Shown one piece after another: positions 4,557 through 60,798 of a stretch of 64,000 nucleotides of DNA (within the stretch, counting starts at the first letter, position 1; each line of letters begins with the position of its first letter). The position numbers and the translations under genes are program-made. The DNA is from an uncultured bacterium (lineage in GTDB: Bacteria > Omnitrophota > Omnitrophia > Omnitrophales > Aquincolibacteriaceae). The notes under the pieces were generated by a model. The model ran no database searches, was not told where the DNA came from, and saw only the letters and a program-made list of their open reading frames with translations. The stretch is from contig CAYLPP010000002.1 of the NCBI GenBank assembly GCA_964385615.1, forward strand, positions 192,944 through 256,943, in the 5' to 3' direction.

Positions 4557-6266
<1,710 letters not shown>

Positions 6267-45115: not shown

Positions 45116-45194
<79 letters not shown>

Positions 45195-45204
45195 TACAAC
45201 AAAA

Positions 45205-45236: not shown

Positions 45237-45252
45237 CTGTCTAAAAACGGTT

Positions 45253-45272
45253 TTGGGAACATTTTGGGAACA
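45253..45272 (+). repeat. Pair of direct TTGGGAACA boxes 11 bp apart (candidate integrase arm-type sites, attL side)
   Basis: TTGGGAACAttTTGGGAACA. The same doublet with the same spacing occurs at 60601..60620 near attR. Confidence 0.45.
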
Positions 45273-45957
45273 AAATGCCCCAAAATTCGTTAACCCCAAT
45301 CCTGCCGCATCTCAAAATATTTTTGCCCTTCCGCACTCCCTTCGCTTTGGTTTTGGGCTTTTAGCCTGTACCAATCGCCTGACCACACCCTCTCATCGTC
45401 GAAATTCGTTCGAGAGGTTGTGGTCAGACGAACGCTCAGGGGTGCGGAAAAACACTCAAAAAATATTTTCCCCTCTAAAAACTTTGACTAGGTTGGAACG
45501 GCCCCCTCCTTTTTGCCCAATACTATGAAGATAAAAATAAAAAAAGCAGCAAGCTGAGTCATAAACCTTGGTTGCTGTAAGGCCATAAAGCCTTAAGCAG
45601 TACCCCGGAGAGTGAGTGTGAGAAATAGGAGTTTTGGAGGCGAACCTGAAAGTGTCTAAAAAATATTTTCAGTATAGAAACTTTGAAAAAGTGTACACGG
45701 CCCCCTTGTTTTTGCCCAATACCATGAAGATTAAATTATTAATCATCCACCCAGCCTTGAAGCTCGGTGTAAAACCAGGCCGTGAAGCCATAAGCAGCAA
45801 AATTGTGTGTGATTGTGATCGTGATTGAGAGTGAGATTTTAAGTATGAACGTGATTCAAAAGGACTGCTGTGTTGAAGGAAAATCTTGGGCGTATACCAG
45901 GATTCTTCGGCGCGTCAATCTTTGAGAATCATCAGTAGTGCGAGTAAGGGAGTGCGT

Positions 45958-46170: not shown

Positions 46171-47331
46171 GTGTGTGAGATGAGAGGAAGCATCATCAAG
46201 CGGTACCGCAAGGTGAACGGCCGCCGCGAAGCGGTTTTTCACATTCGGTACAGAATCGGAGCAAGGCAGTATTCGTTAAGTGTCGGGACGAACAAGAAAG
46301 AAGCCGAACGGATTTTGTCGGAGCGTATTGCGCAGATCCACTATGGCACTTTTTCGCAGCCGAGCCGGGTTCTTTTTTCAGAATTCGGAAAGAAATGGCT
46401 GGAAGATTATGCCATTACAGCGGTGAAGCCTTCGACTTACCGGGCTTATGAAAGCGTGATTACCAAGAGCGTGAATCCGTGCCTTGGTCATTACGCGATT
46501 TCGAAAATCACCCCGGCAATGATTCAGAGTTATTTTGCCGGAGTAGTCCGCGAGCGGCACAGCACCAAAACCGCGAACAATCACCTGGTGCTTTTGAAGA
46601 CCATGTTCAAGCACGCGCGGAAGTGGGGCTATATTCGTGTGAGCCCTGCGGATGATATTGACCGCGCGCGCATCGAAGAAAAAGAAATGGATTATCTGCA
46701 GCCGGAAGAGATCCGTCTGCTGTTGAACAATTCCGACGAACCTTACCGGACTTTGTTCATGACGGCCGCCTTGACCGGAATGCGGCGCGGAGAAATTCTG
46801 GGTTTGCAATGGGGCGATATTGATTGGCAATCCAATCAAATTCGCGTGAGGCGGAGTCTGTTTTGGCAAACCCATGCGGAAAATAAAATCCGCAGGCAGG
46901 ACAAACGCTCGATGTTCACTTCGCCGAAATCAAAGCGCTCGGTCCGTGCGATTGTCATGTCTCCTGCGCTCCGTGAAGCACTTGAAATTCACCGGATTAA
47001 ATCGCCGGTCAGCCCGTTCGATCTCGTTTTCTGCAACACGAACGGAAATCCGATTGATCCGGATAATATGATTCACCGCGAATTTCATCCGGCACTTGTC
47101 CGCGCGGGCCTTCGTAAAATCCGCTTCCACGATTTGCGGCACACCTACACAACTTTGCTGATCGCCCAGGACGCCAACGCCAAATTCATTCAAGCCCAGC
47201 TCGGCCACGCCTCCATCCAAACCACCTTTGATCGCTACGGCCATCTCCTGCCAATCAAAGGCGACGAAGTCGGCCTGCGCCTGGATGCCACTGTTTTTGG
47301 AGGAGCAAAGGAGGTGGTTCAGCAAACCTGA
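46171..47331 (+). CDS. Tyrosine-type site-specific integrase
   Basis: 386 aa with an N-terminal arm-binding-like domain (SAM-like core). C-terminal catalytic motifs R...HDLRHTY...Y (FDRYGHLLP). Confidence 0.9.
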   Translation: MCEMRGSIIKRYRKVNGRREAVFHIRYRIGARQYSLSVGTNKKEAERILSERIAQIHYGTFSQPSRVLFSEFGKKWLEDYAITAVKPSTYRAYESVITKSVNPCLGHYAISKITPAMIQSYFAGVVRERHSTKTANNHLVLLKTMFKHARKWGYIRVSPADDIDRARIEEKEMDYLQPEEIRLLLNNSDEPYRTLFMTAALTGMRRGEILGLQWGDIDWQSNQIRVRRSLFWQTHAENKIRRQDKRSMFTSPKSKRSVRAIVMSPALREALEIHRIKSPVSPFDLVFCNTNGNPIDPDNMIHREFHPALVRAGLRKIRFHDLRHTYTTLLIAQDANAKFIQAQLGHASIQTTFDRYGHLLPIKGDEVGLRLDATVFGGAKEVVQQT

Positions 47332-47552
47332 TAATGACGGGCTAAACGTGATAACAAACACGATAGTAGCTATGTGGCCAAATAAGTGGCCAAAATCTGA
47401 CCCAGTGAGTTTGTAACTATAATCAATCATTAGAGGTGCGATTAAAAAGAAGTGGCCAAAAAAGCGGACATGGCTGCTTTCTTATGTAATCTCATACAAT
47501 CTTATATAGTTAGGTATATAAGATTCATAACCTGTTTATTTTAAATAGGTTA

Positions 47553-47623
47553 TGCATGAAAACTATATTTCATGTAACGAATTTGACATAGGAAGTCAAT
47601 TTTACGACATGAAATATAGTTTT
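47553..47623. promoter_or_regulatory. Nested palindrome upstream of hsdR: perfect 17-bp inverted repeat (47559-47575 and 47607-47623) flanking a 31-bp spacer with an inner TTGAC/GTCAA inverted repeat
   Basis: AAAACTATATTTCATGT ... ACATGAAATATAGTTTT. Three GTGGCCAAA direct repeats lie just upstream (47374, 47386, 47452). More short palindromes occur at 47497-47524. Confidence 0.45.
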
Positions 47624-47705
47624 TGCGGGGCCATTATAAATACCTTGATCTTTGAGAGCCGTCCGCTAGAATTACCTATATGATTACCCATTTAAAGGTG
47701 CGCCA

Positions 47706-50489
47706 GTGAACGAAGCTGAAACACGCAAAGAAATCATCGATCGGGAATTGTCTAAGCGCGGCTGGGATTTAAAAAATCCAAGCCAAGTCATTGTCGAATT
47801 TGAAATGGAAAGTCGATTTCCAGAAGAGAATAAAATTAAGGTACAAGCGGAAGAATATGGAACCAGTTTTTCTGGAAAAGAATTTGCGGACTATTTGCTG
47901 CTTTCCCGCGATGGTGCGACACCCTTTGCGGTAGTTGAAGCAAAACGAACCTCAAAGAATCCGCGCTTGGGTCAGCAACAGGCAGTTGGTTATGCTGAAA
48001 ATATCAAATCTAAATTCGGGGTAGATCCTTTTATCTTTTTGACCAACGGGGAATCCACTCTTTTTTGGGATCGCAGTCGTTATGCACCCCGAAAGGTTTA
48101 CGGCTTTTTCGACATTAAAGACTTAGAACGCCTGAAATATTTACGCGAACAGCAAGTTGATCCTACAATTCTTGAAATTCGCAAAGATATAGCCAGCCGC
48201 GTTTATCAGCATGAAGCCATACGCCGCACGATAGAGACATTCTCAAAAGGCCATCGCAAGGCATTAATTGTTATGGCAACGGGAACAGGAAAAACCCGCA
48301 CCGCGATGGCCTTGATTGATTTGCTCATTCGCGCTAAATGGGTTAATCATGTTTTGTTTTTAGCGGATCGCAAGATGTTGCGCGACCAAGCTTATGGAAA
48401 AAAGGGCTTTCAAGGATTCTTTACGGAGTCCATGACGAAAATCAAAAGCGGTTCGTTTGATAAGAATCAGCGCCTTTACGCCTCAACGATTCAAACACTT
48501 GAAGAAGTTTATCGGGAAATCTCGCCCGGGTTTTTCGATTTAATCATCATTGATGAATGCCATAGATCTATTTACAACAAGTGGCAGGATATCCTTTCCT
48601 ATTTTGATGCTCTTCAGGTTGGATTAACCGCAACACCGGCAGAATTTGTTGACCGGGATACTTTTCGTTTTTTCCAATGCGACGAAGGTCATCCGACTTT
48701 TAACTACACCTACGAGTCGGCCATTGAAGAAGAAATTCTAGTGCCCTTCATCCCTTATCATGCAAAGACTAACTTTCAAATTAAAGGATTGAAATCAGGG
48801 CAGATTCCAGAAGAGATCAGAAAGAAACTAGTCGAGGAAGGCAAAACAGAGGAAGAGCTAGACTTTGAAGGTACAGATTTTGAGAAGAAGTTTACGAACA
48901 AAGAAAGTTTGGAGTCCATGGTTAAGGAATTCATGGAGGTTTGTAATAAAGACGAAACCGGCTCTCTTCCAGGTAAGACCATTTATTTTGCTATTTCCAA
49001 AGAGCATGCTTACCGATTGCTCGATACTTTTGAACGACTTTACCCAGAATATAAAGGACGGCTCGCAGAAGTTATTGTTTCAGACGACAGCCGTGCGGAT
49101 GGATTCTTAACCCGATTCGAAAACGATTCTTTTCCTCGCATCGCTATCTCCGTTGATATGCTTGATACAGGGGTGGACATTCGCGAGGTGGTGAATCTGG
49201 TTTTCGCCAAGCCCGTATTTAGCAAAATCAAATTTTGGCAAATGATAGGCCGTGGAACGCGCACGATTGATTCAGAAAATGCCAAGCCTTGGTGCGCGTT
49301 TAAAGATTCATTCCTGATAATTGACCACTGGAGCAATTTTGAATATTTCAATTTAAAGCCTGAAGGCGAAATTCAAGCTCCGCAGGATTCTTTGCCTACC
49401 CGGCTCTTTCGCCTCCGTTTGCAGAAGCTGAAGCTCCAGCTGGCTTCTCAAAACCAAGAAGCTTGTGAGGCTATTAAACAAGACCTGTTAACAAGCATTC
49501 GTGCCTTGCCTCAAGATAGCGTGACCATCCTCGAAAAGAAGGAGTCTTTGACCAGAGTTTTAAGCGAGGCTTTTTGGAAGCACATTGATATTGGTTATTT
49601 AGAAAAGGAAATTGCGCCTCTCTTACGCTTTACCCAGGATGTGAATTTGAATATCTATGCATTTCTTATAAAGTGCGAGCGTTTAGAGATCGCGGCGATC
49701 AGCAAAGAAGAAAAAGCAATCAAGGAAATTGGAGAATCTATTCGTGAAGACCTGCGTTTGCTGCCGCTAAATCTCAGACAAATTCAGCAAAAAGAAGAAC
49801 AGGTTTTACGGGCTTCATCAGATCGTTTTTGGAGTTCTTTCCAGATGAATGAAGTGGGTTTTCTCAAAACAGAGATTGCGCCTTTGATGAAATGGCGCCG
49901 TGAGAGAACGCATACAGTAATTGAGTTTGATCTTAAGGATGAAATTTTAGAGCGTAAATGGATTGAGTTTGGCCCTTCCGGAGAAGGCGATTATGTTCAT
50001 CAATACAAAGAGAAAGTAGAGAAAGAAATCCGAACTTTGGCAGATCAAGATTCTGCCTTGAAAAAAATCAAAGAGGGCCACCCTGTTAGCGAAGAAGAGC
50101 TCGACCGGCTGGAAGACAAATTGAATCAGCCAGATTTATATATCAACGAGCGTAATTTGCGTGAAACCTATGGGCAGCCCACGGGAACCTTCAAACAATT
50201 CCTTCTCAAAATATTTGACAAATATGACTTCCCAAGTCGTGAGCAGCTTATTCAAAGGTCCTTTGAGACTTTTGTTCATGAGAAGCCCTGGTTTTCTGCG
50301 GATCAAATTCATTTTCTGCGTATCGTAAAAAATGTTTTCATTGAAAAATGCAAGCGTCGGGAAAAGCTTTCCGTGCATGATTTTTACGAAGGGCCTTTTG
50401 AGGCTCTCGGGCAAGACGCCGCAGATAAGCTTTTTAAGAAAAACGAGCTTGAAGAAATCGTTGAGTTTTTTAACAGTCAGGCGGCCTAG
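47706..50489 (+). CDS. hsdR: Type I restriction enzyme R subunit
   Basis: GTG start. MNEAETRKEIIDRELSKRGW is the HsdR N-terminus. Walker A ATGTGKT, DECH box, helicase C-terminal motifs; 927 aa. Confidence 0.9.
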   Translation: MNEAETRKEIIDRELSKRGWDLKNPSQVIVEFEMESRFPEENKIKVQAEEYGTSFSGKEFADYLLLSRDGATPFAVVEAKRTSKNPRLGQQQAVGYAENIKSKFGVDPFIFLTNGESTLFWDRSRYAPRKVYGFFDIKDLERLKYLREQQVDPTILEIRKDIASRVYQHEAIRRTIETFSKGHRKALIVMATGTGKTRTAMALIDLLIRAKWVNHVLFLADRKMLRDQAYGKKGFQGFFTESMTKIKSGSFDKNQRLYASTIQTLEEVYREISPGFFDLIIIDECHRSIYNKWQDILSYFDALQVGLTATPAEFVDRDTFRFFQCDEGHPTFNYTYESAIEEEILVPFIPYHAKTNFQIKGLKSGQIPEEIRKKLVEEGKTEEELDFEGTDFEKKFTNKESLESMVKEFMEVCNKDETGSLPGKTIYFAISKEHAYRLLDTFERLYPEYKGRLAEVIVSDDSRADGFLTRFENDSFPRIAISVDMLDTGVDIREVVNLVFAKPVFSKIKFWQMIGRGTRTIDSENAKPWCAFKDSFLIIDHWSNFEYFNLKPEGEIQAPQDSLPTRLFRLRLQKLKLQLASQNQEACEAIKQDLLTSIRALPQDSVTILEKKESLTRVLSEAFWKHIDIGYLEKEIAPLLRFTQDVNLNIYAFLIKCERLEIAAISKEEKAIKEIGESIREDLRLLPLNLRQIQQKEEQVLRASSDRFWSSFQMNEVGFLKTEIAPLMKWRRERTHTVIEFDLKDEILERKWIEFGPSGEGDYVHQYKEKVEKEIRTLADQDSALKKIKEGHPVSEEELDRLEDKLNQPDLYINERNLRETYGQPTGTFKQFLLKIFDKYDFPSREQLIQRSFETFVHEKPWFSADQIHFLRIVKNVFIEKCKRREKLSVHDFYEGPFEALGQDAADKLFKKNELEEIVEFFNSQAA

Positions 50490-50491
50490 CG

Positions 50492-51535
50492 ATGAAGTCA
50501 TTTAGCGAAGAATATTTTAAAAACTTATTTACGCCTCCTGAGATGCTCCCGACTTTTACTGCTTTGGGAGAATACAAGGGGAAGGAATTGCTTTTCCAAA
50601 GGCAATCCCGCGATGTTCTTGAAAAAATGGTCATGGTTGCCAAAATTGAAAGTGCGGAATCTTCCAACCGTATTGAAGGTGTCATTGTTCCTCATAAGCG
50701 TGTCGAGGCTCTTTTTAATAAAAGCATGCCTAAAAATCGCTCAGAGCAAGAAGTGGCCGGGTATCGTGACGCTCTTCAAAAAATACATGAAATGCATGAC
50801 GGTATGCCTATTTCCAATAATGTGGTACTGATGCTGCATTCCAGTCTTTATAAATATGTTACGGGTGTTAAATCCGGGGAATGGAAGCGAAGCGACAATG
50901 AAATTATTGAACATCTTCCGGATGGGAATACGAAGCTGCGCTTTAAACCTGTTTCTGCGTTTCAAACAGCGCATTACATGGAAGAGCTAGTGCGTCAGTT
51001 TAATCATGCGATGCAAAAACGGCGAATGGACCCACTCGTATTAATCCCTCTTTTTGTTTTGGATTTTCTCTGCATCCATCCATTTCTTGATGGTAATGGT
51101 CGTGTAAGTCGTCTTTTGACTTTGCTGTTGCTTTATCACGCGGGTTTCGGAGTTGGGAAATATGTCAGCTTGGAACGCTTAGTCGAAGAAAGTAAAGAAA
51201 CCTATTACGAAGCGCTTTACGATTCTTCGCAAGGTTGGCATGAAGGAAAACATAATGCGCTTCCATGGGTGCGCTATTTTTCTGGTGTGCTAACAGCAGC
51301 TTATAAAGAGTTTGAATCTCGGGTTGGTATTTTTAAAGAGTCAGGGACTAAAAGCGAGCGTTTAATCGAAATTATCAATCGTTTCGAAAATCCGTTTTCT
51401 GCCTCTGATCTTCAAAAGGCCTGCCCAGATGCGGGTATTGACCTTATCCGCAAAATCCTTAAAGACCTCCGCCGTTCTGGGGATATAGAGCCCCTGGGAC
51501 GAGGGCGCTACGCCCAATGGCGGCGAATTAGGTAA
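50492..51535 (+). CDS. Fic-family protein (canonical HPFLDGNGRVSR motif, N-terminal SxxxEG inhibitory-helix motif, C-terminal winged-helix-like tail) embedded between hsdR and hsdM
   Basis: Fic motif HPFLDGNGRVSRLL; SNRIEG lies upstream. The start is 2 nt after the hsdR stop. Confidence 0.85.
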   Translation: MKSFSEEYFKNLFTPPEMLPTFTALGEYKGKELLFQRQSRDVLEKMVMVAKIESAESSNRIEGVIVPHKRVEALFNKSMPKNRSEQEVAGYRDALQKIHEMHDGMPISNNVVLMLHSSLYKYVTGVKSGEWKRSDNEIIEHLPDGNTKLRFKPVSAFQTAHYMEELVRQFNHAMQKRRMDPLVLIPLFVLDFLCIHPFLDGNGRVSRLLTLLLLYHAGFGVGKYVSLERLVEESKETYYEALYDSSQGWHEGKHNALPWVRYFSGVLTAAYKEFESRVGIFKESGTKSERLIEIINRFENPFSASDLQKACPDAGIDLIRKILKDLRRSGDIEPLGRGRYAQWRRIR

Positions 51536-51605
51536 TAGCCTTATTTAATTAGGTAAAAATACAATAAAATACCTAATTGACAGAGGGGGCTTACCTAATT
51601 AGAAT
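51525..51605 (+). promoter_or_regulatory. Internal promoter for hsdM-hsdS (TTGACA-N17-TAGAAT) overlapped by four 9-bp AATTAGGTA / TACCTAATT boxes
   Basis: Boxes at 51525-51533 and 51547-51555 (AATTAGGTA) and at 51570-51578 and 51592-51600 (TACCTAATT). TTGACA at 51577-51582, TAGAAT at 51600-51605. AAGGAG RBS at 51661. Confidence 0.5.
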
Positions 51606-51670
51606 GCTCCTATTCTCAAGCCTGTATATGCAGGCAATTGAGAAGCGGAATCATTTCTTTAAGGAGCCCT

Positions 51671-53161
51671 ATGTTAAAACCTGAGCTAAAAAGTCAAATC
51701 GATAAACTCTGGAATCGTTTCTTCGCCGGAGGCATCGCGAACCATCTCACCGCAATTGAGCAAATTTCCTACCTTATTTTTATGAAGCGCCTTGAAGATA
51801 TGGATTATCAGCATGCTCGGGCAGCTGAAAGGCGCGGAGAAAAATATGCTTCGATTTTTAAGGGGCAAGAAAATTGCCGTTGGTCGCATTGGATTCAAAT
51901 GCCGGCTGACGAAATGTTGGCCCATGTTCGCGACAAGGTTTTTTTATTCATCAAAAATTTAAAAGGCGAAGAGAGTCTTTTTGGAACAGCGATGAAAGAT
52001 GCTGTTTTTATGATTCCCAAGCCTTCGCTTTTACAAGAAGCCGTTAAAATTATTGATGAACTTAACATCTCGCAGCAAAACCTCGATACCCAGGGCGATA
52101 TTTACGAATACCTTTTAAGCTCTCTTCAAAGCTCTGGACTCACAGGTGCTTTTAGAACGCCGCGCCACATTATTCGCATGATGGTCAAATTGGTTGATCC
52201 TAAGATTGGCGAAAGAGTTTGCGATCCAGCTGCTGGAACAGCAGGTTTTCTTGTAAATGCTTTCTTGCATATTCTTGAACAGAACACATACAAAGATTCT
52301 GTTGAGTATGACGAAGACGGAGTTCCGCATCATCTCGTCGCTGAAAAGCTTGATAAAAAGCAGCGTAACTTCTTAAAAGAAAAAGCCTTTTATGGTTTTG
52401 ATTTTGATACGACCATGGTTCGTATCGGAATTATGAATCTTATCCTGCACGGCGTTGAAAAGCCTCAATTTCAATATACAGATACGCTATCTAAGTCCTT
52501 CGAGCAGCGTGAAAAATACGATGTGATTCTGGCGAACCCACCCTTCAAAGGCTCTATTGATAAAAGCGATATTTCGGATCAATTCAAAGTGAAGTCCACG
52601 AAGACAGAGCTTCTCTTTATGGAATTATTTATACGGCTTCTAGTAACAGGTGGTCGTGCGGCAGTGATTGTTCCAGATGGTGTTCTTTTTAGTTCATCCA
52701 ACGCGCATGCTGGCGTGCGGAAAATGCTCGTGGAAGAAAACCAGCTTGAAGGCATCATCTCGATGCCTTCGGGTATATTCAAGCCCTACGCTGGGGTTTC
52801 AACCGCTATTGTCATTTTTACTAAAGGTGGCGAGACGGACAAAGTTTGGTTTTATGACATGACAGCAGATGGACTATCCTTGGATGATAAACGCCAAAAA
52901 ACCGAAGAAAATGATATCCCAGATATTGTTTCAAAATGGAAAGCGCGGGATATCAAAAAGAAGCCCTCAGCAGGAGAGAAATGGTTTTGGGTAGATGTTA
53001 AAGATATACGCAAGACTAAATATGACCTTTCGATTTCTAATTATAAAGAAATCCAATATGAAGAAGTTCAGCATGAGAATCCCGAGGAAATTTTAAATAA
53101 AATTTTACAGTTAGAACGGGAAATCCAAGAAAATGTTAGCGCTTTAAAAGGCTTCAAATGA
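51671..53161 (+). CDS. hsdM: Type I restriction-modification DNA methyltransferase M subunit
   Basis: ATG at 51671 (MLKPELKSQIDKLWNRFFAGGI) with AAGGAG 5 nt upstream. NPPF motif (LANPPFKGS). SAM-binding DPAAGTAGFL. Confidence 0.9.
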   Translation: MLKPELKSQIDKLWNRFFAGGIANHLTAIEQISYLIFMKRLEDMDYQHARAAERRGEKYASIFKGQENCRWSHWIQMPADEMLAHVRDKVFLFIKNLKGEESLFGTAMKDAVFMIPKPSLLQEAVKIIDELNISQQNLDTQGDIYEYLLSSLQSSGLTGAFRTPRHIIRMMVKLVDPKIGERVCDPAAGTAGFLVNAFLHILEQNTYKDSVEYDEDGVPHHLVAEKLDKKQRNFLKEKAFYGFDFDTTMVRIGIMNLILHGVEKPQFQYTDTLSKSFEQREKYDVILANPPFKGSIDKSDISDQFKVKSTKTELLFMELFIRLLVTGGRAAVIVPDGVLFSSSNAHAGVRKMLVEENQLEGIISMPSGIFKPYAGVSTAIVIFTKGGETDKVWFYDMTADGLSLDDKRQKTEENDIPDIVSKWKARDIKKKPSAGEKWFWVDVKDIRKTKYDLSISNYKEIQYEEVQHENPEEILNKILQLEREIQENVSALKGFK

Positions 53162-54312
53162 AAGTCAATGCTCCCATGAAGTTAGAAGAAATCTGTGAAT
53201 TCATTAATGGAGGCACGCCCCCACGTCACGTGAAGGAATATTATCATGGAACAATCCCCTGGGTTACGAGCGCTGACATTAATGATGATCAAATAAACTT
53301 TGGTCGTAACTATATTAATAAAAAATCAATTGCAGAATCTTCAACCAATTTGGTTGCACCAGGCACCGTATTGCTTGTGACTCGAACGGGTGTTGGTAAG
53401 GTCGTCATTGCTGATCGCGAACTTTGTTTTAGTCAAGATATAACCGCAATTTCACCCGACCCTAAAAAAATACGTGGCGACTATCTAGCTTATTTTTTAA
53501 AAAGCAAAATGGCCTATTTTAAAAATCATCAAAGAGGCGCGACGATTAAAGGGATAACTCGTGAAGTTGTCAGCCGATTGCAACCATTCTTGCCGGTTTT
53601 GGAAAAGCAAGAAAAAATCGTTAGTATTTTAAAAAAGACGGAATTTTCCCTTGAGGAACGCCGGGAAGCAATTGGCCTGCTCGACAATTTCCTCGAATCC
53701 ACCTTTGTGAACATGTTTAATAGAAAAGATTATCCCAAAGAAAAAATAGAGAAATTTATTATCGATACAGAAATCATCGACCCTTCAAGAAAACCTACGG
53801 ATAATTTTTTTTATGTGGATATTGAAAGCGTTGATAGTAAGGAGGGTGTCATCAAGGGGGCGAAGGAGCTAACAGGCGCAGAGGCGCCCAGTCGGGCAAG
53901 AAAACGAATAAAAAAAGAAGATGTCTTAGTTTCTACGGTGCGCCCCAACTTGAACGCAACCGCTCTTGTTCCTGAAAATTTGGATAACCAAGTGTGCTCA
54001 ACGGGTTTTGCAGTGTTGAGATGTTCCGGTGATCTTCGCCCGGCTTATTTGTATATGTGCACCCGCTTGAATTTTTTTATCGCGCAATTAGTCGCAAAGA
54101 CAAAAGGGGCATCTTACCCGGCCGTCTCCAATCAAGATGTTCTTGATACGAAAATCCCTTTTCCTCCAATTGAAGAGCAGAAAAAATTCGAAGCTATTTT
54201 TTTGAAGGTTCAGCAGATTAAACGGAAAATGAGATCTTCGGAAGCCGAGCTTCAAAACCTTTTCAATTGCCTGATGCAAAAAGCCTTTAAGGGAGAGCTA
54301 TTCAATGCCTAA
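53158..54312 (+). CDS. hsdS: Type I restriction-modification specificity subunit
   Basis: ATGA overlap with hsdM. Two target-recognition domains separated by conserved helical repeats (LPVLEKQEKIVSIL / FPPIEEQKKFEAIF). Confidence 0.85.
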   Translation: MKVNAPMKLEEICEFINGGTPPRHVKEYYHGTIPWVTSADINDDQINFGRNYINKKSIAESSTNLVAPGTVLLVTRTGVGKVVIADRELCFSQDITAISPDPKKIRGDYLAYFLKSKMAYFKNHQRGATIKGITREVVSRLQPFLPVLEKQEKIVSILKKTEFSLEERREAIGLLDNFLESTFVNMFNRKDYPKEKIEKFIIDTEIIDPSRKPTDNFFYVDIESVDSKEGVIKGAKELTGAEAPSRARKRIKKEDVLVSTVRPNLNATALVPENLDNQVCSTGFAVLRCSGDLRPAYLYMCTRLNFFIAQLVAKTKGASYPAVSNQDVLDTKIPFPPIEEQKKFEAIFLKVQQIKRKMRSSEAELQNLFNCLMQKAFKGELFNA

Positions 54313-55183
54313 ACGAAAGCGGTCTCAGAAAAGGCATAGACGGCCTCGGGCCAAGAAGAAAGTTTTACGCAGATCTGGCCTTTCAGTTGTTCAAAGGCAA
54401 AACATTAGATTGTTGGCTGAACAAATTGGTCGATTGATTCCATGGTCCAGCTTTGGCGGTAAGCTCACACTAACGTCATTGGCTAAGAAACGAGGATTGA
54501 AGAAATTTTTACCAAAGAAAACGTCTTCCAAGAAGGACGGAACGGTGCATTTCCTTGAACTTTTATTGGTAAATAAGCCGCGGGTTTTAAAGAAGCTGAT
54601 TCGGGAAATTCTCCCGCTTGCCGTTGAACGTCGGCACGCCCAGGGAGATCCGCTTCTTTCGCAGGAGGCTGGGGTTCTTTCTGATCGGTTGCTTTTACTT
54701 GGAGTTAATCTAAAAAAAGAAATAAAAGAAATGAATCTTCCGGTGGCGTGGCCACGTGTCGTTCCGCCTTCCGTCGAAATCCAGCAGACTTTAAGCAAGC
54801 TCCCATTACATTCCTTGTTGTTACCCGAATGCAGAGATTTATTCCTCAAAGGTCACATCAACGAATCGGTTAGGAAGGCTGCTGAAAAATTTGAAGTCCG
54901 TGTCCAAGGCTTGAGCGGGATTGCTGACAAGATCGGTAGAGACTTAATGGCAAACGCATTCTCGGAAACAAATCCAAAGATAAAGCTTAACGGCTTGACC
55001 ACAGCTAATGAGAAGAACGAGCAGGAAGGTTTTAAGCTGATTTCTATGGGCGTGATGGCTTGGTGGAGAAACACCACTAGTCATGGTGATGAGCCTCAAA
55101 TGGCTCCCCAGGACGGCCTTTCCCGTTTGCTAACAATCAGCAACTTGTTGCATATTTTGGACGAGCGAACAAAGCCCGCTTAA
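54305..55183 (+). CDS. Protein with highly basic N-terminal region and C-terminal TIGR02391/Hypoth_Ymh-like domain
   Basis: The start overlaps the hsdS stop by 8 nt. The N-terminal 40 aa are very basic (KRKRSQKRHRRPRAKKK). C-terminal motifs ECRDLFLKGHINESVRKAAEKFEVRVQ, GRDLMANAFS and WWRNTTSHG match my recollection of the Hypoth_Ymh family, which is often found in restriction-modification or Abi loci. Confidence 0.6.
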   Translation: MPKRKRSQKRHRRPRAKKKVLRRSGLSVVQRQNIRLLAEQIGRLIPWSSFGGKLTLTSLAKKRGLKKFLPKKTSSKKDGTVHFLELLLVNKPRVLKKLIREILPLAVERRHAQGDPLLSQEAGVLSDRLLLLGVNLKKEIKEMNLPVAWPRVVPPSVEIQQTLSKLPLHSLLLPECRDLFLKGHINESVRKAAEKFEVRVQGLSGIADKIGRDLMANAFSETNPKIKLNGLTTANEKNEQEGFKLISMGVMAWWRNTTSHGDEPQMAPQDGLSRLLTISNLLHILDERTKPA

Positions 55184-55187
55184 AAAT

Positions 55188-55934
55188 ATGGATGAAATAA
55201 CCAATAAACTTTTAGCTGGCGATATAATCATTACCAGTCAAAATAAGTTTTCTTTCTCAACTTCTCTTTTTATTCGCTTTGGAAATTTTTCAAAGTATGG
55301 ATTTTCTCGTCGCGGGTGGACTCATGCGGCTTTGTATGTCGGCGATGGTGAAGTTGTAGAAGCTTTTCCCACGGGAATTGTTAAGCGCAGTTTAAAAGAC
55401 GCTTACCTGAATGGAGACTACCGCATAAGTGTTTTGCGAAGAAAGGGTGGGGCATCGCAAAGCCTTGGCCAAGCGGTTGAGTTTTGCAAGAGCAAGGTAG
55501 GTAAAACCTATGATCAAAAGGCGCTTATTTATTATGTGATCGTTCAAATTCTGCCGCCTATTCTTCAGTTTCTTTTAAACACAAAAGCGGTAGATCAATG
55601 GTTAAATAATAAGGACGCTTTTTACTGTTCGGAGCTTGTTGCCCAAAGTCTTTTAGAAGCGAACACCTATTGTTTTGATCGAGCGCCTGACCGGATTATG
55701 CCGGTCGATTTATACAGTAACGAGTACTGCTTTGAGCGCATTCTTGAACTGCCGGCCCCAAAGCAGAATTTCATCAAGAAAGCAGCGATCTGCTTGGGAT
55801 ACACCATTGCAATATTGATTTGGTTGGTTCTTAGCGCAATCATAGTTTTTGTTGCGGTTCAGCTTGTTATTCGTGCTTTAGCTGCAACAAAAAATCAGCA
55901 AAAAGATGCTAGTTCTGACGAAGCTAAAAAATAA
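55188..55934 (+). CDS. Permuted papain-fold (NlpC/P60-superfamily, YiiX/C92-like) putative amidase with C-terminal transmembrane anchor
   Basis: His block WTHAALYVGDGEVVEA precedes Cys block AFYCSELVAQ (permuted order). The C-terminal hydrophobic helix is ILIWLVLSAIIVFVAVQLVI. The start lies 4 nt after the upstream stop. Confidence 0.55.
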   Translation: MDEITNKLLAGDIIITSQNKFSFSTSLFIRFGNFSKYGFSRRGWTHAALYVGDGEVVEAFPTGIVKRSLKDAYLNGDYRISVLRRKGGASQSLGQAVEFCKSKVGKTYDQKALIYYVIVQILPPILQFLLNTKAVDQWLNNKDAFYCSELVAQSLLEANTYCFDRAPDRIMPVDLYSNEYCFERILELPAPKQNFIKKAAICLGYTIAILIWLVLSAIIVFVAVQLVIRALAATKNQQKDASSDEAKK

Positions 55935-55951
55935 ATGTTTTGAGAGGTTTA

Positions 55952-56764
55952 ATGACTAAAGAAATTATTCGAAAATTAATCGGTGTGGAAGTTCGGTTGG
56001 GATTTCTTTATATCCCAGCGAATGCGATTGAGTGGATGCCGCCGCAAAGTGGAAAAATCATGGTGGCTATGCCAGACGGTTTGAATTCCCTTACATATAA
56101 CGTCGATTACAAACGAATTTTTGGTTTAACAAAGTGGTATAAAAAATTCGATTCGAAGGTTGGAGACGAGGTTGTTTTAGAAAAGACCGGCTCTAACTAC
56201 TCAATTAAGTTTCGTCCGAAGAAGCAGCCTGTCGAATCGGAACAAGAAGCTGAAAATCTTATCGATATATCCGGCCTTTCATCTCAGGCAAAAGGAAATA
56301 TTGTTGAAGACCGCATAAAAGAATTGATTGTTTTGCAGGGACAAGGCATTTTGAATGTTTATCGTCCGGTCACCGATAATCATGGCATTGATTTGATCGT
56401 CACAAAAATTGGAAATTTTCACCCGATATTTCTCCAGGTAAAAAGCCGGTTTAATGTCCAGAAAGCCGGCTATTTCCTCATGGATATCTCCAAAAAAACT
56501 TTTAAATCGCACCCTTCTTTTTTTGTGTTAGGGGCTTACTTTAACCCTCAAAAATTAGAAGTGCATGACAGTTTATTGCTGGTGCCGAGCGTTGAGATTG
56601 AGAAGCTTAAGTCATTTGAAACGAAAAACGGACCTCGCTATCGTGTGATGAATTACTTGAATCCGGAATCTCAAGGTAAATGGGCGAAATATTTGATTAA
56701 AAAAACAGACTTGGCCAATCAGCTGCTTGAGCGGTTTGAAGAAATGGAAAAGTTTTTACGGTAA
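55952..56764 (+). CDS. Putative nuclease: N-terminal B3-like pseudobarrel-type DNA-binding region plus C-terminal PD-(D/E)xK-like motif
   Basis: ATG at 55952 with GAGAGG RBS. GLTKWYKKFDSKVGDEVVLEK resembles the B3/EcoRII-N pattern (GW..F....L..GD.V.F). HGIDLIVTK...IFLQVKSR gives D...QxK spacing typical of PD-(D/E)xK. The call is tentative. Confidence 0.5.
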   Translation: MTKEIIRKLIGVEVRLGFLYIPANAIEWMPPQSGKIMVAMPDGLNSLTYNVDYKRIFGLTKWYKKFDSKVGDEVVLEKTGSNYSIKFRPKKQPVESEQEAENLIDISGLSSQAKGNIVEDRIKELIVLQGQGILNVYRPVTDNHGIDLIVTKIGNFHPIFLQVKSRFNVQKAGYFLMDISKKTFKSHPSFFVLGAYFNPQKLEVHDSLLLVPSVEIEKLKSFETKNGPRYRVMNYLNPESQGKWAKYLIKKTDLANQLLERFEEMEKFLR

Positions 56765-56779
56765 GGCGGAAAATTTACG

Positions 56780-56801
56780 ACGGGCAATAGCCCGTTTTTT
56801 T
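56780..56801 (+). terminator. Rho-independent terminator ending the hsdM-hsdS-three-gene transcription unit
   Basis: ACGGGC-aata-GCCCGT followed by TTTTTTT. Confidence 0.55.
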
Positions 56802-56841
56802 GTCTTTAATTAACAGTAGTGTTTTAGAAAGTGGATTGAAT

Positions 56842-57756
56842 ATGCTCAAAACAACAATAAAAGGCTCTGATTTTTTGGCGTCCTTTAGTCAGTTAATTAA
56901 GGGCGCTTATCTTGATAAGAGCAATAAAACGAAGTTGGATTTGTTTGTTCTTAATTTAGATTCAAATGAATTCGACTATGAAACATTTAAAAGACGATTG
57001 ATTGATCCAGTGATTGATTTTTCTCTTTCGCGAAAAATTAAGCAACAGTACAAAACGCAGCCCGGTACTCAATCTAAAACAGCGCGGGAAAAGTTTAAAC
57101 ATTATATGGAGAATACTGGAGAGCTGGGAGAGTTCCTCCTATTCTGTTTTTTGGAGACTCACCTGAATGCACCCAAAATTCTCACAAAGATGGAAATAAA
57201 AACATCTACTAGTCACTACACACACGGGTCTGACGGAGTCCATTTTCTTGAGCTAGCGGATGGGAATTTCCATTTAATTTTCGGAGAATCAAAAACAGAA
57301 AAAAGGTTATCTAAATCTATAGCGAATGCCATTCAGTCGATTCATGATTTTAAGAATTCTATTAACGCTAAAGGCAAGAAAAAAAGCGGCATGGCTTATG
57401 AAAAGTCATTAATTTCCAGCGAAATCTTAAAAGAGACATTTTCGAAAAAAGAAAAAGATTTTATCGAAGCTATGATTTACCCGAAAGCATCGAATGACTT
57501 TGACGTTGATACCGCATTTGGTATTTTTCTTGGATATCAAATGAGTATAAATATCGCCGATAAGAAGCTCTCCAATGAAGAGTGCCGGAAAAAGATTTAT
57601 GCCAAAATAGAAAAACAAGTGACAAAATCCTTTAAGACGATAATGAAGAAAATTGATGAAAAGGGTTTAGCAGGACACCACTTTTATATTTATATTTTGC
57701 CGTTTACAGATTTGGTCAAAACACGAAAAGATATAACAGAACACATCTCCTCATGA
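56842..57756 (+). CDS. hamA: Hachiman HamA-like protein (DUF1837-type PD-(D/E)xK nuclease-like)
   Basis: The ORF track gives a TTG at 56800 inside the terminator T-run; ATG at 56842 (MLKTTIKGSD) is preferred. The motif GSDGVHFLEL...LIFGESK has D...ExK spacing. The size (about 300 aa) and pairing with a downstream SF2 helicase via ATGA overlap fit Hachiman. Confidence 0.6.
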   Translation: MLKTTIKGSDFLASFSQLIKGAYLDKSNKTKLDLFVLNLDSNEFDYETFKRRLIDPVIDFSLSRKIKQQYKTQPGTQSKTAREKFKHYMENTGELGEFLLFCFLETHLNAPKILTKMEIKTSTSHYTHGSDGVHFLELADGNFHLIFGESKTEKRLSKSIANAIQSIHDFKNSINAKGKKKSGMAYEKSLISSEILKETFSKKEKDFIEAMIYPKASNDFDVDTAFGIFLGYQMSINIADKKLSNEECRKKIYAKIEKQVTKSFKTIMKKIDEKGLAGHHFYIYILPFTDLVKTRKDITEHISS

Positions 57757-60311
57757 CGAACAAGTCTCTCGCGGATGAATTAACGGAAAAGATTTTTAAA
57801 GACACTTATTTTATTAAACTAATAAGTAAAGCGGAAGCTATAGCAGCGGATAACTTCTTTGGAATTAATCAGAACCAACAACAATTAAATGAAAAAGAAG
57901 TTTTAGGCTTGTTAAGATTTGCTGATATTTTATCTCACTCAAGCAAGCCTCAGGCTAGAAATCTTGCCTATAAAATCATCAGTACTTTGGCAGAGCAGAA
58001 AGTTGATAGCGCTGATTTTAGCATTTTTGCTACAGCAGTTTTATCCAAACTTGGAAATTTTCCGGCTTTAAAGTATTTTTCAGATAACTTTAAACATAAA
58101 CAAATCCTTCCCTTCGAGAGAGAGCTTGAAAAAATTCTTAAAGAGGAAATTCAAAAGGTGCCCTTTGAAGAAAATATATTTACAGATGCCCAATATGCGA
58201 TATTTGAACAGTTAAAGAATAATAATCATTACAGTTTCTCGGGGCCGACCTCTTTAGGTAAGTCATTCATAATCGAAGCCTTTGTAAAATATCTAGTTTC
58301 GCGTAGTGGGGTTAATGAAAATATAATTATTCTAGTTCCCACACGAGCGCTTATTAATCAAGTGTCGCTGAAGTTGAAAAACAGTTTGAAAAATGAAGGA
58401 AGCTACAAGGTTTTAACGCATCCGATCGTCCCTGAGTTTTTTAAGAGAAATGCTCAAGGTTTTGTCTTTGTTTTTACACCGGAACGGCTAATTCTTTTCC
58501 TCTCGAACTACAATAATCCTAAGGTTGAATATTTATTCGTTGATGAGGCTCAAAAAGTAATTTCGGAACGAGATACTAGAAGTCCACTTTATTATCACTC
58601 TATTTTGCAGGCTGAAAGGAAGTCCATTAAGCTTTTCTTTTCTTCTCCGAATATTCCTAATCCAGAAGTGTTTCTTCAAGTTTTTGAAAAGAGCACAGAT
58701 GAAGTTGTTTCTGTAATTGATTCGCCGGTTTCTCAGAACCGATACTTTCTGGATTTAATAGAGAGAAAGGTGCTCTTTTTTCCAGACATGGATAAAGAGA
58801 GACAAATCGATATTACTATCGACAACGATAAGATTTTTTATTGGTTAAAGAGACTTGGTGAAGGACAAAAAAACATTGTCTATTGCAACACCATAGAAGA
58901 CACGATTAATTACGCACGTGACTTTTCTTCCGAGTTACCAAATAAATCAAGCTCAAAATTAGACGAATTGATTAATTTAATCAAAGCCTCATTACATAAA
59001 GACTATTTTCTCATCGATTGTTTGAAAAAGGGGGTGGCGTTCCATTTTGGGAAACTACCGCAAAGAATCCGTTTGAAACTTGAAGAATTGTTTCGTGATA
59101 AGGTTATAGATTGGGTTTTTTGCACCTCGACTTTATTAGAGGGTGTAAATTTGCCTGCAAAAAACATCTTTATATTAAGCAATGCCATTGGGGCTTCAAA
59201 ATTTACAGATATTGATTTTTGGAATTTAGCGGGACGCGCTGGCCGATTATCAAAAGATCTGTCAGGTAATATTATTTGTTTGAGAGGTATAGAAAAGGAT
59301 GGACGTTGGGATAATCCAGAAAAAGACCTAGAAGTGGTGCGCAATAAAGAGGTTAGTCCTTTACAGCCCTTGATCATAAAAGGGCAAAAAAGTTTCTTCA
59401 AAAACATCGAGAACTCCTTATTACAACAGAATTTTACAAGAAAAAATGCTTCACAGCCTGAGAAGGATATATGGAACTCTTATGCAAACATAACTGTTAT
59501 TCATGAGCTTCGAAAAGATGAGTCGGTTTTAAGAGCCAACTTTATAGAAAGAAATGCTGGGGGCAGAGAGCTTTTGAAGAAGCTTGTTAAGCAGAACAAA
59601 GTGCCTGAAAAAATACTAACAGCTTCTTCCTCCATAAAAGTAAGGATACAAAATGAAGTTTATGAAAAATTGAATGATAAAGATGCTTTACCTCAGCCAG
59701 TAGGCTACGACACAATTCTATCGGTGTTGGAAAGTCTTTGTGTTAAATACGATTGGGAAAATGAAGAATCTGGTGGAAGAAATCCTATGATCAAGAAAGG
59801 AAGAGGAGTACTAAAGTACTACGCTACATTGATGAATGAATGGATGCAATCTTCCCCTCTAAATCAAATGGTTCGTATTGCAATTAAGTATTACGATGAA
59901 CGTGGAGAGATATGGCTTAATAACCATATCAAAGAAACATTCGATCGAAATAATCGGACACATATTAATGCGATTATTAATGATTTAATCGGCGACATTG
60001 ATAATGTTTTAAGATTTAAACTCGAAAAATATTTCAATAATTACTTTTTATTAATACGGCATAAATTCGGTGAAAAGAAAGCTGGGGCCAATTGGGCAGA
60101 ATATCTAGAGTATGGAACTACGGATAAAAAAATTATTGAACTTCAAAATATTGGTTTTTCACGGCATTTAGCTAAATATATTCTAGACAATCATGAAGAT
60201 TGTGTTTCCTTTAATGATGAAGGCGTTTTAGAAAAAATAGATAGCGAAAAACTATTACTGACTTTTGATAAGACTACAGATGAATACAAAGAATATGAAG
60301 AGGTAGTTTGA
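57753..60311 (+). CDS. hamB: Hachiman HamB-like SF2 (DExH/DEAD-type) helicase
   Basis: 852 aa. Walker A GPTSLGKS, motif II VDEAQ, motif VI NLAGRAGR, long C-terminal extension. Start overlaps the hamA stop. Confidence 0.7.
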   Translation: MTNKSLADELTEKIFKDTYFIKLISKAEAIAADNFFGINQNQQQLNEKEVLGLLRFADILSHSSKPQARNLAYKIISTLAEQKVDSADFSIFATAVLSKLGNFPALKYFSDNFKHKQILPFERELEKILKEEIQKVPFEENIFTDAQYAIFEQLKNNNHYSFSGPTSLGKSFIIEAFVKYLVSRSGVNENIIILVPTRALINQVSLKLKNSLKNEGSYKVLTHPIVPEFFKRNAQGFVFVFTPERLILFLSNYNNPKVEYLFVDEAQKVISERDTRSPLYYHSILQAERKSIKLFFSSPNIPNPEVFLQVFEKSTDEVVSVIDSPVSQNRYFLDLIERKVLFFPDMDKERQIDITIDNDKIFYWLKRLGEGQKNIVYCNTIEDTINYARDFSSELPNKSSSKLDELINLIKASLHKDYFLIDCLKKGVAFHFGKLPQRIRLKLEELFRDKVIDWVFCTSTLLEGVNLPAKNIFILSNAIGASKFTDIDFWNLAGRAGRLSKDLSGNIICLRGIEKDGRWDNPEKDLEVVRNKEVSPLQPLIIKGQKSFFKNIENSLLQQNFTRKNASQPEKDIWNSYANITVIHELRKDESVLRANFIERNAGGRELLKKLVKQNKVPEKILTASSSIKVRIQNEVYEKLNDKDALPQPVGYDTILSVLESLCVKYDWENEESGGRNPMIKKGRGVLKYYATLMNEWMQSSPLNQMVRIAIKYYDERGEIWLNNHIKETFDRNNRTHINAIINDLIGDIDNVLRFKLEKYFNNYFLLIRHKFGEKKAGANWAEYLEYGTTDKKIIELQNIGFSRHLAKYILDNHEDCVSFNDEGVLEKIDSEKLLLTFDKTTDEYKEYEEVV

Positions 60312-60600
60312 TAAATATAGAAGATTTTCCGCACAGTGTGTGGAAAATCATGAGATCAAGTTAAGCCCGGAAGGCTAGGTGGGCTTTACATACTTGGTTG
60401 CATTGCTTTTAATTACCCAGGTTTTAATTTTAGGTGTTACTAAAAAATGATTTTTATAATCAGAGAGATAATCTGATACGATCTTTTGACCTTAAATTTT
60501 GGCGGGTGGTGCGGGCGGCGGCGAAAAATGCAGCCGGGAAACAACGAAAAACATCAGCAGAAAGCAGCAGCAAACTAAAACAAAAATTTGTGCTGAAATT

Positions 60601-60620
60601 TTGGGAACAAATTGGGAACA
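60601..60620 (+). repeat. Second TTGGGAACA-N2-TTGGGAACA doublet (candidate arm-type sites, attR side)
   Basis: TTGGGAACAaaTTGGGAACA has the same box and 11-bp register as 45253..45272, 119 bp inside attR. Confidence 0.45.
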
Positions 60621-60738
60621 AAACAGGCAGAAAAGCCGTCAAAAACGAAAAACCAGCATTAAAAACTTTCACACTTAAATCATGCTCACAGAAATAGTTA
60701 TAAAAAATAATCAAAAATCAGAAAAATCGTTTCGACCC

Positions 60739-60785
60739 CTCATAACCCAAAGGTCCCAGGTTCAAATCCTGGCCCCGCTACCAAT
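60739..60785 (+). repeat. attR core: 47-bp copy of the tRNA-fMet 3' end (not a complete tRNA)
   Basis: Exact match to 45148..45194; the upstream sequence does not continue the tRNA. Confidence 0.9.
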
Positions 60786-60798
60786 CGCAAGTGAAGAA

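Follow-up and report, generated by a model that had tools for sequence, protein, structure and literature searches.

We analysed a 64,000-nucleotide (nt) stretch of DNA from an uncultured Omnitrophota bacterium (GenBank assembly GCA_964385615.1, contig CAYLPP010000002.1), which we refer to as the window and to whose numbering all coordinates refer unless another locus is named, and focused on three uncharacterised genes, here termed A, B and C, that directly follow the Type I restriction-modification (R-M) genes hsdM and hsdS inside a defence island. Our data point, probably but with real room for doubt, to A, B and C being three independent single-gene accessory modules in a variable cargo slot of the island, rather than one three-component system. 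In this scheme the three genes have piled up downstream of hsdM-hsdS, with the hsdM promoter probably serving them too, and the Type I system would be decorated with independent layers, namely a Fic protein, A (a HEPN protein), B (a membrane enzyme) and C (a solitary nuclease), with Hachiman coming next. Each of the three genes, on its own, recurs beside R-M or other defence genes elsewhere.

The evidence that carries this reading comes from the genomic contexts of the homologs. Loci were gathered by a genome scan with the C profile (29 loci), a metagenome scan with the B profile (50) and look-ups of single homologs (18), the best homologs coming mostly from metagenome-assembled genomes of Omnitrophota and Planctomycetota. 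Profile hidden Markov models (HMMs) of A, B and C were then run against the six-frame open reading frames (ORFs) of the first 92 loci, alongside tblastn searches with the window proteins. The A-B-C trio was present in none of these 92 related loci and occurs in the window only. Twenty-nine loci carry only C, 58 carry only B or a B-like gene, 4 carry only A, and a single one (L032) combines B with a weak A-like gene, a distant Ymh gene (Ymh being the family of A) from which B is separated by a DUF4917 gene. Neither A nor B, nor any Ymh-like ORF, was found in the 29 C loci, and neither B nor C in the 4 A loci. Additionally, the families differ greatly in size, with at least 314 database clusters for C, 37 homologs for A and 12 for B. 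A sequence-only reading of this DNA had proposed that the three genes form one candidate defence module and had asked whether they co-occur as a trio elsewhere; among the sampled loci they do not, and the proposal of a single module is not supported. The three-gene module was rejected because tblastn and profile HMMs over the fetched loci gave no second instance, and a two-gene B-C module was likewise rejected, as no B locus contained C and no C locus contained B.

A sibling island, carried by a Logan SRR32919025 contig (L093), lacks B and C as well and plainly illustrates how cargo can be exchanged while the island scaffold is shared. At the amino acid level its integrase is 97% identical to that of the window and its gene A 95% identical, with the same 8-nt overlap at the hsdS/A junction, whereas its HsdR, HsdM and HsdS are only 24-31% identical to their window counterparts. 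AbiE is found instead of Fic, and where the window has B, C and Hachiman there is a CBASS system of CD-NTase and Cap15. At the DNA level, homology between the two islands is limited to 46578-47624, 54280-55173 and 60390-60469, the second of these segments corresponding almost exactly to gene A and breaking off at the A/B boundary, and the third being a short piece at the right end. Since the sibling island keeps A without B and C, A is separable from them by recombination and at home in an island that lacks them. Moreover, A is 95% identical between two islands whose Hsd proteins share only about 25% identity, which argues against co-evolved contacts between A and Hsd.

Within the window, the three genes lie on the plus strand as a tight cassette of gene A (54305..55183, an ORF of 292 amino acids [aa]), gene B (55188..55934, 248 aa) and gene C (55952..56764, 270 aa). 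The start of gene A overlaps the 3' end of hsdS (54312) by 8 nt (ATGCCTAA), and the intergenic gaps are 4 nt between A and B and 17 nt between B and C. An alternative start for gene C lies at 55940, the ATG at 55952 being favoured by an alignment with 30 homologs and giving the 270-aa protein. All three genes have full-length homologs (E 1e-47 to 1e-122), and they are therefore genuine genes and not chance ORFs. Shine-Dalgarno-like strings precede gene A (GGGAGAG) and gene C (GAGAGG), while none precedes gene B, which fits translational coupling of B. The cassette is closed by an intrinsic-terminator-like hairpin and T-run (56779..56801, plus strand; hairpin 56779-56796), whose folding energy of -16.6 kcal/mol corresponds to z = -3.8 against shuffles and which is the sole strong terminator-like element on the plus strand downstream of hsdM. 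At the other end, the top sigma-70-like match within 47-61 kb lies immediately upstream of hsdM (51577..51605, plus strand; TTGACA-17-TAGAAT) and is a candidate promoter for hsdM-hsdS-A-B-C, as a consensus match only. A lone terminator after C, coupled with the best promoter site before hsdM, makes it plausible that A, B and C are co-transcribed with hsdM-hsdS. Rfam and repeat scans of the cassette revealed no RNA family and no structured repeat. GC content varies from gene to gene, at 46% in A, 41% in B and 39% in C, compared with 34% in HamAB and 41-42% in the hsd genes, a variation that favours the independence of the three genes.

Much of the descriptive part of the sequence-only reading was borne out. 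The three ORFs with their overlap and gaps, the terminator after C and the setting between hsdR-Fic-hsdM-hsdS upstream and HamA/HamB downstream are as it had described them, and so are the domains it had assigned: a poly-basic N-terminus and a Ymh/TIGR02391 domain in A (both family scores above their cut-offs), a permuted papain-fold enzyme with a C-terminal anchor in B, and a B3-like domain joined to a PD-(D/E)xK core in C, for both of which structure prediction and Foldseek matches were obtained. Its statement that these domains belong to no defence system that can be named did not stand, as the Ymh domain of gene A belongs to a HEPN RNase family already described as R-M-linked (PMC3710099), and gene A, which it had cast as a nucleic-acid-binding adaptor, is better read as a toxin.

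Gene A combines a poly-basic N-terminus and a helical N-terminal domain with a Ymh-family HEPN domain, and is, as predicted from its sequence, a Ymh-family HEPN endoribonuclease. Residues 168-284 match PF09509 Hypoth_Ymh (5e-24, 84.9 bits versus a cut-off of 25), and the protein also matches TIGR02391 (2.2e-16, 60.1 bits versus a cut-off of 39.45). Both of the motifs by which HEPN proteins have been defined, Rx4-6H and Ex3[KR] (PMC3710099), are present, as R255-NTTS-H260 and E187-SVR-K191; N256, H260, E187 and K191 are invariant across 24 homologs, and R255 is replaced by K in 3 of the 24. Weaker PADLOC matches were obtained to PD-Lambda-3_B (1.1e-11) and to an Argonaute-associated HEPN model. 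Ymh was assigned to the HEPN RNases by Anantharaman et al. (2013), who tabulated it as "in operon with R-M" (PMC3710099). The 37 homologs of gene A are mostly full length (268-301 aa) and keep the N-terminal helical domain (about 140-165 aa), including its basic tip. An AlphaFold2 (AF2) model of the protein is all-helical, with a predicted local distance difference test (pLDDT) score of 90, and a Foldseek search of the PDB with this model gave no match below E = 2, with no recognisable relative for the N-terminal domain. Residues 1-165 match no ATPase in Pfam, NCBIfam or PADLOC, and are modelled as helices only. The public annotation of gene A uses an internal GTG start (codon 81), which omits window positions 54305-54547 and leaves 212 aa. 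Conservation of residues 26-80 across 24 homologs, together with the high confidence of their model, favours the longer ORF and indicates that the annotated gene is truncated.

The A-family gene follows hsdS in L091 as it does in L093 (hsdM-hsdS-A), and lies between hsdM and hsdS in L092 (hsdM-A-hsdS-hsdR); the window, L091, L092 and L093 thus each have the HEPN gene within a Type I hsd operon, whereas L089 and L090 do not. In L091 the next gene (4587-5378 of that locus) encodes a Sigma70_r4-like helix-turn-helix (HTH) fused to an Mrr_cat nuclease domain, with weak matches to Type IV restriction enzymes; it takes the place held by B and C in the window and is a positional analogue of C. Gene A is an instance of an already described class, the R-M-linked HEPN toxins, which include Ymh and have PrrC-EcoprrI as their paradigm. 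With this class it shares domain scores above the PF09509 and TIGR02391 cut-offs, the Rx4-6H and Ex3[KR] motifs, and a Fic/DOC gene in its operon, as in comparable loci of PMC3710099; its place directly after hsdS, or between hsdM and hsdS in L092, is the position of prrC. By analogy with PrrC, gene A would be a latent second-line toxin that cuts RNA once the R-M system is bypassed or inhibited, both the latency and the activation upon R-M failure being extrapolated from the PrrC paradigm. Gene A has neither an ABC-ATPase domain, as found in PrrC and RloC, nor a paraMORC regulatory domain, and carries in their place a conserved helical N-terminal domain with a poly-basic tip, without recognisable relatives. 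Two observations speak against a PrrC-like contact model: the 95%-identical A of L093 adjoins HsdM and HsdS that are only about 25% identical, and the A homologs of L089 and L090 lie in other defence islands with no Type I system within 8 kb. The missing NTPase regulatory domain and the indifference of A to its Hsd partner weaken the case for PrrC-type latency.

Gene B encodes a permuted NlpC/P60 domain (Peptidase_C92, YaeF/YiiX-like) followed by a C-terminal membrane anchor and, by analogy with related enzymes, is most likely a lipid-acting membrane effector. It matches Peptidase_C92 (PF05708) with 32.2 bits versus a cut-off of 27. H46, Y50, E58 and C147 are invariant in 12 homologs, the His block preceding the Cys block, and in a profile search of the PDB the His box aligns, weakly (E about 0.25-0.3), with the catalytic His of Spr/MepS. 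The strongly hydrophobic C-terminal anchor spans residues 199-234 and is preceded by basic residues, and the protein has no signal peptide, features that together suggest a tail-anchored protein whose catalytic domain faces the cytoplasm. A second conserved hydrophobic stretch is found between the His and Cys blocks at residues 112-131 (window 55521-55580, ALIYYVIVQILPPILQFLL); this element may dip into the membrane or belong to a lipid pocket.

Lipids are bound or cleaved by permuted NlpC/P60 enzymes, whose hydrophobic pocket held a fatty acid in YiiX (PMC3142127). In addition, the type VI secretion system toxin Tox-Act1, itself a permuted NlpC/P60 enzyme, is a phospholipase A1 (bioRxiv 10.1101/2024.09.27.615498) and shows that this fold can work as a membrane phospholipase toxin. 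Gene B shares with YaeF/YiiX (C92), LRAT/PLAAT and Tox-Act1 the His-before-Cys order, the conserved Tyr and a third polar residue, and with PLAAT the single C-terminal hydrophobic anchor. The latter is a resemblance and not a sign of LRAT-family membership, as gene B falls outside that family by sequence (PF04970, 14.5 bits versus 24.3, His box only); nor is it a YaeF orthologue (NF008552 equivalog, 40.7 bits versus a cut-off of 279), and it is predicted to be cytoplasmic and tail-anchored, neither secreted nor a lipoprotein. By analogy, gene B would act on the acyl chains of membrane lipids from the cytoplasmic face, in the manner of YiiX, LRAT/PLAAT and Tox-Act1, and would serve as a membrane-damaging or membrane-remodelling effector. 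What sets it apart from the permuted NlpC/P60 lipid enzymes is its placement in R-M and defence operons, a context for which we found no report; our literature search retrieved no paper pairing NlpC/P60 with antiphage or defence-island terms, and a preprint on TIR systems makes no mention of it.

The B family is rare as judged from sequence databases: 12 homologs were collected, and an exhaustive profile search of 1.84 billion representatives (50%-identity clusters) gave 35 at E <= 1e-30. Of about 10 distinct contexts sampled from this small family, at least 7 place B within a defence operon. In L030/31 and L038 it opens Type I operons, preceded by a small HTH_17 gene, with the order B-hsdR-hsdS-hsdM that is also seen in L039, and it lies at the tail of Type I operons after a DUF4917 gene in L032 and L035, two otherwise different Type I R-M loci that share the DUF4917-B arrangement. 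The DUF4917 gene, a PADLOC candidate (PDC-S21, 4e-100), lies directly upstream of the B homolog in both (7004-8810 of L032 and 6942-8756 of L035). Gene B may thus have recurrent partners other than A and C, namely DUF4917 and HTH_17. In L033 it comes after a Thoeris cluster and in L045 after two DNA methylases, and it recurs beside SIR2-like genes as well as Thoeris. In three B-containing loci, a 26-aa stretch that is 77-81% identical to the C-terminus of the window HsdS is found just after hsdM (15186-15263 of L030, 10012-10089 of L031 and 9057-9134 of L039); this stretch may be what is left of an hsdS 3' end, or it may mark a conserved junction. No match to gene B was detected among 50,697 phage records, and the plasmid hits were weak (about 27% identity) and limited to hypothetical proteins encoded by 9 Bacillus thuringiensis plasmids. 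Two results weigh against a defence role for B, in that the B homolog of L043 has a housekeeping-type context between Mla-type and Kdp genes, and that B matches no PADLOC model.

Gene C consists of a B3-like pseudobarrel, a disordered linker and a PD-(D/E)xK nuclease domain, an architecture from which, on the basis of its structural model, we predict it to be a solitary restriction-type endonuclease. The AF2 model (pLDDT 84) resolves into two domains, the B3-like domain covering residues 1-88 and the nuclease domain lying beyond the linker at 91-104. In Foldseek searches of the PDB, the N-terminal domain matched the plant B3 domains 1yel, 7et6, 6j9b and 5yzy (E 9e-5 to 4e-4, target TM 0.60-0.66), and the C-terminal domain matched I-Ssp6803I, a PD-(D/E)xK homing endonuclease, together with Hjc resolvases and the SPARDA nuclease DREN, and more weakly NhoI; the matches of the nuclease domain to 2ost, 2eo0 and 9qcc have E values of 1e-4 to 7e-4 and a probability of 1.0. 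E119, D147, Q162 and K164 (Q162-x-K164) are invariant across 31 homologs and fall on the expected elements of the model, a helix at 111-130 and strands at 134-137, 148-152 and 159-166, in keeping with the alpha-beta-beta-beta-alpha-beta core of the PD-(D/E)xK superfamily. By sequence the protein is far less readily placed: no Pfam model reaches its cut-off, Pfam has no B3 or EcoRII-N match to it, and a sequence-profile search of the PDB found no relative. The family comprises at least 314 sequence clusters of about 270 aa, all of them unannotated, from Omnitrophota, Planctomycetota, Bacteroidota, Actinomycetota, Gammaproteobacteria, the candidate phyla radiation and archaea; mean identity is 47% across the B3-like domain but reaches 68% for the nuclease core. 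Members are placed almost always in R-M or defence loci, at the end of Type I, II and III R-M operons and of other defence operons.

In 13 of the 29 genome loci, gene C lies downstream of Type I hsd genes on the same strand, and it is often spaced between -13 and +31 nt from the preceding gene. Its direct upstream neighbours include HsdR, an AAA_13 ATPase, an OLD-like ATPase with PHP, HerA and a ResIII helicase with a TnsA-like nuclease, and further ones are a deaminase, a KAP NTPase, GmrSD, a DEAD/MZB helicase and a YgjP-like peptidase. Where Type I genes are missing upstream of C, the loci still hold Type III methylases and GajB-like helicases. A Type II R-M pair adjoins the closest C homolog (71% identity), whose called neighbours include neither a Ymh nor a C92 gene. 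No match to gene C was found in 72,556 plasmid records or in 50,697 phage records. Because these neighbours vary from Type I, II and III systems to GmrSD, ATPases and loci with no recognised methylase, gene C has no constant methyltransferase partner, and this solitary, promiscuous distribution makes a methylase-independent (Type IV-like) enzyme the most likely analogy. The B3-like domain would sense DNA and the PD-(D/E)xK domain would cut it, a build that fits the modular sensor-plus-nuclease pattern by which defence nucleases have been described (PMC12191111).

Among known enzymes, gene C shares with EcoRII (Type IIE) an N-terminal B3-like domain and a C-terminal PD-(D/E)xK domain in one polypeptide, and with the B3-domain restriction enzymes BfiI, UbaLAI and the R-protein of NgoAVII/CglI the joining of a DNA-binding pseudobarrel to a nuclease domain. 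It differs from these enzymes in being much shorter, in having Q162 for the acidic residue, in lacking a constant methyltransferase partner, and in having a nuclease core that resembles I-Ssp6803I, Hjc and DREN instead; neither an EcoRII nor a BfiI chain is among its top 50 PDB fold matches, and no Pfam B3 or EcoRII model matches it. I-Ssp6803I and DREN, for their part, form tetramers or filaments. As a solitary DNA-binding and PD-(D/E)xK protein near hsd, gene C is also reminiscent of the Mrr-type Type IV enzymes that lie beside Type I systems in the immigration control region, and the HTH and Mrr_cat gene of L091 occupies the equivalent place after hsdM-hsdS-A. It has a different DNA-binding domain and belongs to a different nuclease subfamily from these Mrr-type enzymes. 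Several points tell against the proposed role of C: Q162 replaces the usual acidic residue of (D/E)xK, PDDEXK_5 (PF11645) scores 21.5 bits (E 2.5e-4), below its cut-off of 26.1, no PADLOC model matches at E<=0.1, and no known modification-reader domain (SRA, EVE/PUA or Mrr-N) was found, the only grounds for the Type IV assignment being solitary occurrence and the positional analogy with the Mrr_cat gene of L091.

The layout of the cassette, with its overlap of 8 nt, gaps of 4 and 17 nt, one strand and single terminator after C, is what would be expected if A, B and C were the sensor or adaptor, membrane effector and nuclease of one novel three-gene defence system, and all three proteins have defence-type domains. 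We nonetheless regard such a system as very improbable, given that the trio is absent from the 92 related loci, that the family sizes are very unequal (314 for C, 37 for A, and 12 or about 35 for B), and that the sibling island retains A while CBASS replaces B and C, with the break in homology at the boundary between A and B. In a narrower pairing, A and C would form a PD-lambda-3-like pair of HEPN protein and PD-(D/E)xK nuclease, with B as an unrelated insertion. The HEPN half of gene A aligns to PD-Lambda-3_B, one of the two components of this E. coli system (1.1e-11, covering positions 137-265 of the 270 in the profile), the domains given for PD-lambda-3 in a review table include a PD(D/E)XK nuclease (PMC10952713), the A homolog of L091 is followed, with a 4-nt overlap, by the HTH and Mrr_cat nuclease, and L032 has a Ymh gene and a PDDEXK_1 gene in one operon. 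The match of gene A is, however, confined to the HEPN domain, and no PD-Lambda-3_A-like partner is at hand: B has no PADLOC match, C has none at E<=0.1 and is thus not detectably PD-Lambda-3_A, and the nuclease of L091 matches Type IV mREase models instead. Moreover, a Ymh-like ORF occurs in 0 of the 29 C loci, no nuclease adjoins the A homologs of L092 and L093, nor was one recognised beside those of L089 and L090. Membership of the PD-lambda-3 family was rejected on the grounds that only the HEPN half of A matches PD-Lambda-3_B and that neither C nor the L091 nuclease matches PD-Lambda-3_A, and we find an A-C pair quite unlikely.

It is also conceivable that B, C or both have no part in defence and ride along as passengers, B as an envelope enzyme that modifies lipids or lipoproteins, and C as a homing-endonuclease-like selfish gene or a repair nuclease at operon ends. 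Consistent with this idea, the best match of the C nuclease domain is the homing endonuclease I-Ssp6803I, C sits -13 to +31 nt from very diverse upstream genes in many phyla with an unusually conserved nuclease core (68%), the YiiX-like enzyme LnsA acylates lipoproteins, one B homolog lies amid Mla and Kdp genes (L043), and neither B nor C matches a PADLOC model. The neighbourhood data fit it poorly: Type I R-M operons make up almost half of the C loci, where by a rough estimate less than 1% would be expected by chance for a random gene, most of the others contain recognised defence genes, and B is found in defence operons in most of its distinct contexts. The absence of phage matches for both genes and of plasmid matches for C, with only weak plasmid matches for B, does not favour mobile passengers either, and a phage- or plasmid-borne origin of B and C was dropped for the same reason. 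We consider the passenger reading unlikely. The reading of three independent accessory modules, which we prefer, has its own weak points, as the samples are small (6 contexts for A and about 10 distinct ones for B), functional cooperation of A, B and C within this particular island would be compatible with their not co-occurring elsewhere, and the mechanistic steps proposed for the three proteins are drawn from sequence, models and analogy. Going beyond it, gene B could belong to a defence effector class that is new, namely a permuted NlpC/P60 phospholipase or acyltransferase, tail-anchored and facing the cytoplasm, which has repeatedly been recruited to Type I R-M, Thoeris and SIR2-like loci and would damage or remodel membranes when the first line fails, and gene C could found a widespread, unannotated family of solitary restriction enzymes with a plant-B3-type pseudobarrel sensor; this joint proposal is possible, if doubtful.

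The genes around the cassette, all on the plus strand, follow the order integrase, hsdR, Fic/DOC gene, hsdM, hsdS, A, B, C, HamA, HamB. The left 52-nt direct repeat (attL, 45148..45199) consists of the 3' half of a tRNA-Met (gene 45116-45192) plus 7 nt, and the right repeat (attR, 60739..60790) is 96% identical to it. Between them lie the tyrosine integrase of the island (46171..47331; Pfam Phage_integrase, 1.6e-26), the Type I restriction subunit gene hsdR (47706..50489), a Fic/DOC-family gene (50492..51535; Pfam Fic 1.4e-16, PADLOC SoFic 2.3e-37), hsdM (51638..53161), hsdS (53158..54312), the Hachiman gene HamA (56800..57756; PADLOC HamA 8e-108) and the Hachiman helicase gene HamB (57753..60311; PADLOC HamB, E = 0). 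GC content drops from 52% in the flank to 34-46% within. Taken together, the 52-nt repeats at tRNA-Met, the integrase and the low GC content define the cluster as a 15.6-kb integrative island at tRNA-Met that carries Type I R-M, Fic, A, B, C and Hachiman. The Fic/DOC gene begins 3 nt past the hsdR stop, a layout that agrees with the R-M operons with DOC/Fic toxins described in PMC3710099. Just inside the island ends, copies of a TTTTGGGAACA-type motif (45251-45275 and 60588-60623) may be arm-type binding sites of the recombinase. An 84-nt imperfect direct repeat (75% identical; 45456-45539 and 45655-45738) lies between tRNA-Met and the integrase gene. Outside the island, just upstream of tRNA-Met, a 2696-aa ORF (36851-44941) with F5/8 type C, M26 N-terminal and RHS-repeat matches looks, from its domains, like a giant surface or secreted host protein.

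Our analysis illustrates that tight operon packing inside a defence island is by itself insufficient to define a system; in the window, three unrelated accessory genes appear to have accumulated in a single transcription unit of an island that is mosaic and driven by its integrase. Neither the stacking of toxins on R-M operons nor the existence of mosaic integrative defence islands is new in itself. Our literature search, within the literature that could be searched, found no report of the B or C family as a defence gene. It is plausible that B and C are new single-gene defence candidates of known general kinds, a membrane-targeting effector and a sensor-nuclease fusion, respectively. Both families are without defence annotation in Pfam, NCBIfam and PADLOC, and they emerge as good candidates for experiments. 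If B does prove to be a lipid-targeting effector, it would bring a new toxin chemistry to the idea of multi-pronged R-M systems, which has so far encompassed RNases and Fic/DOC toxins.

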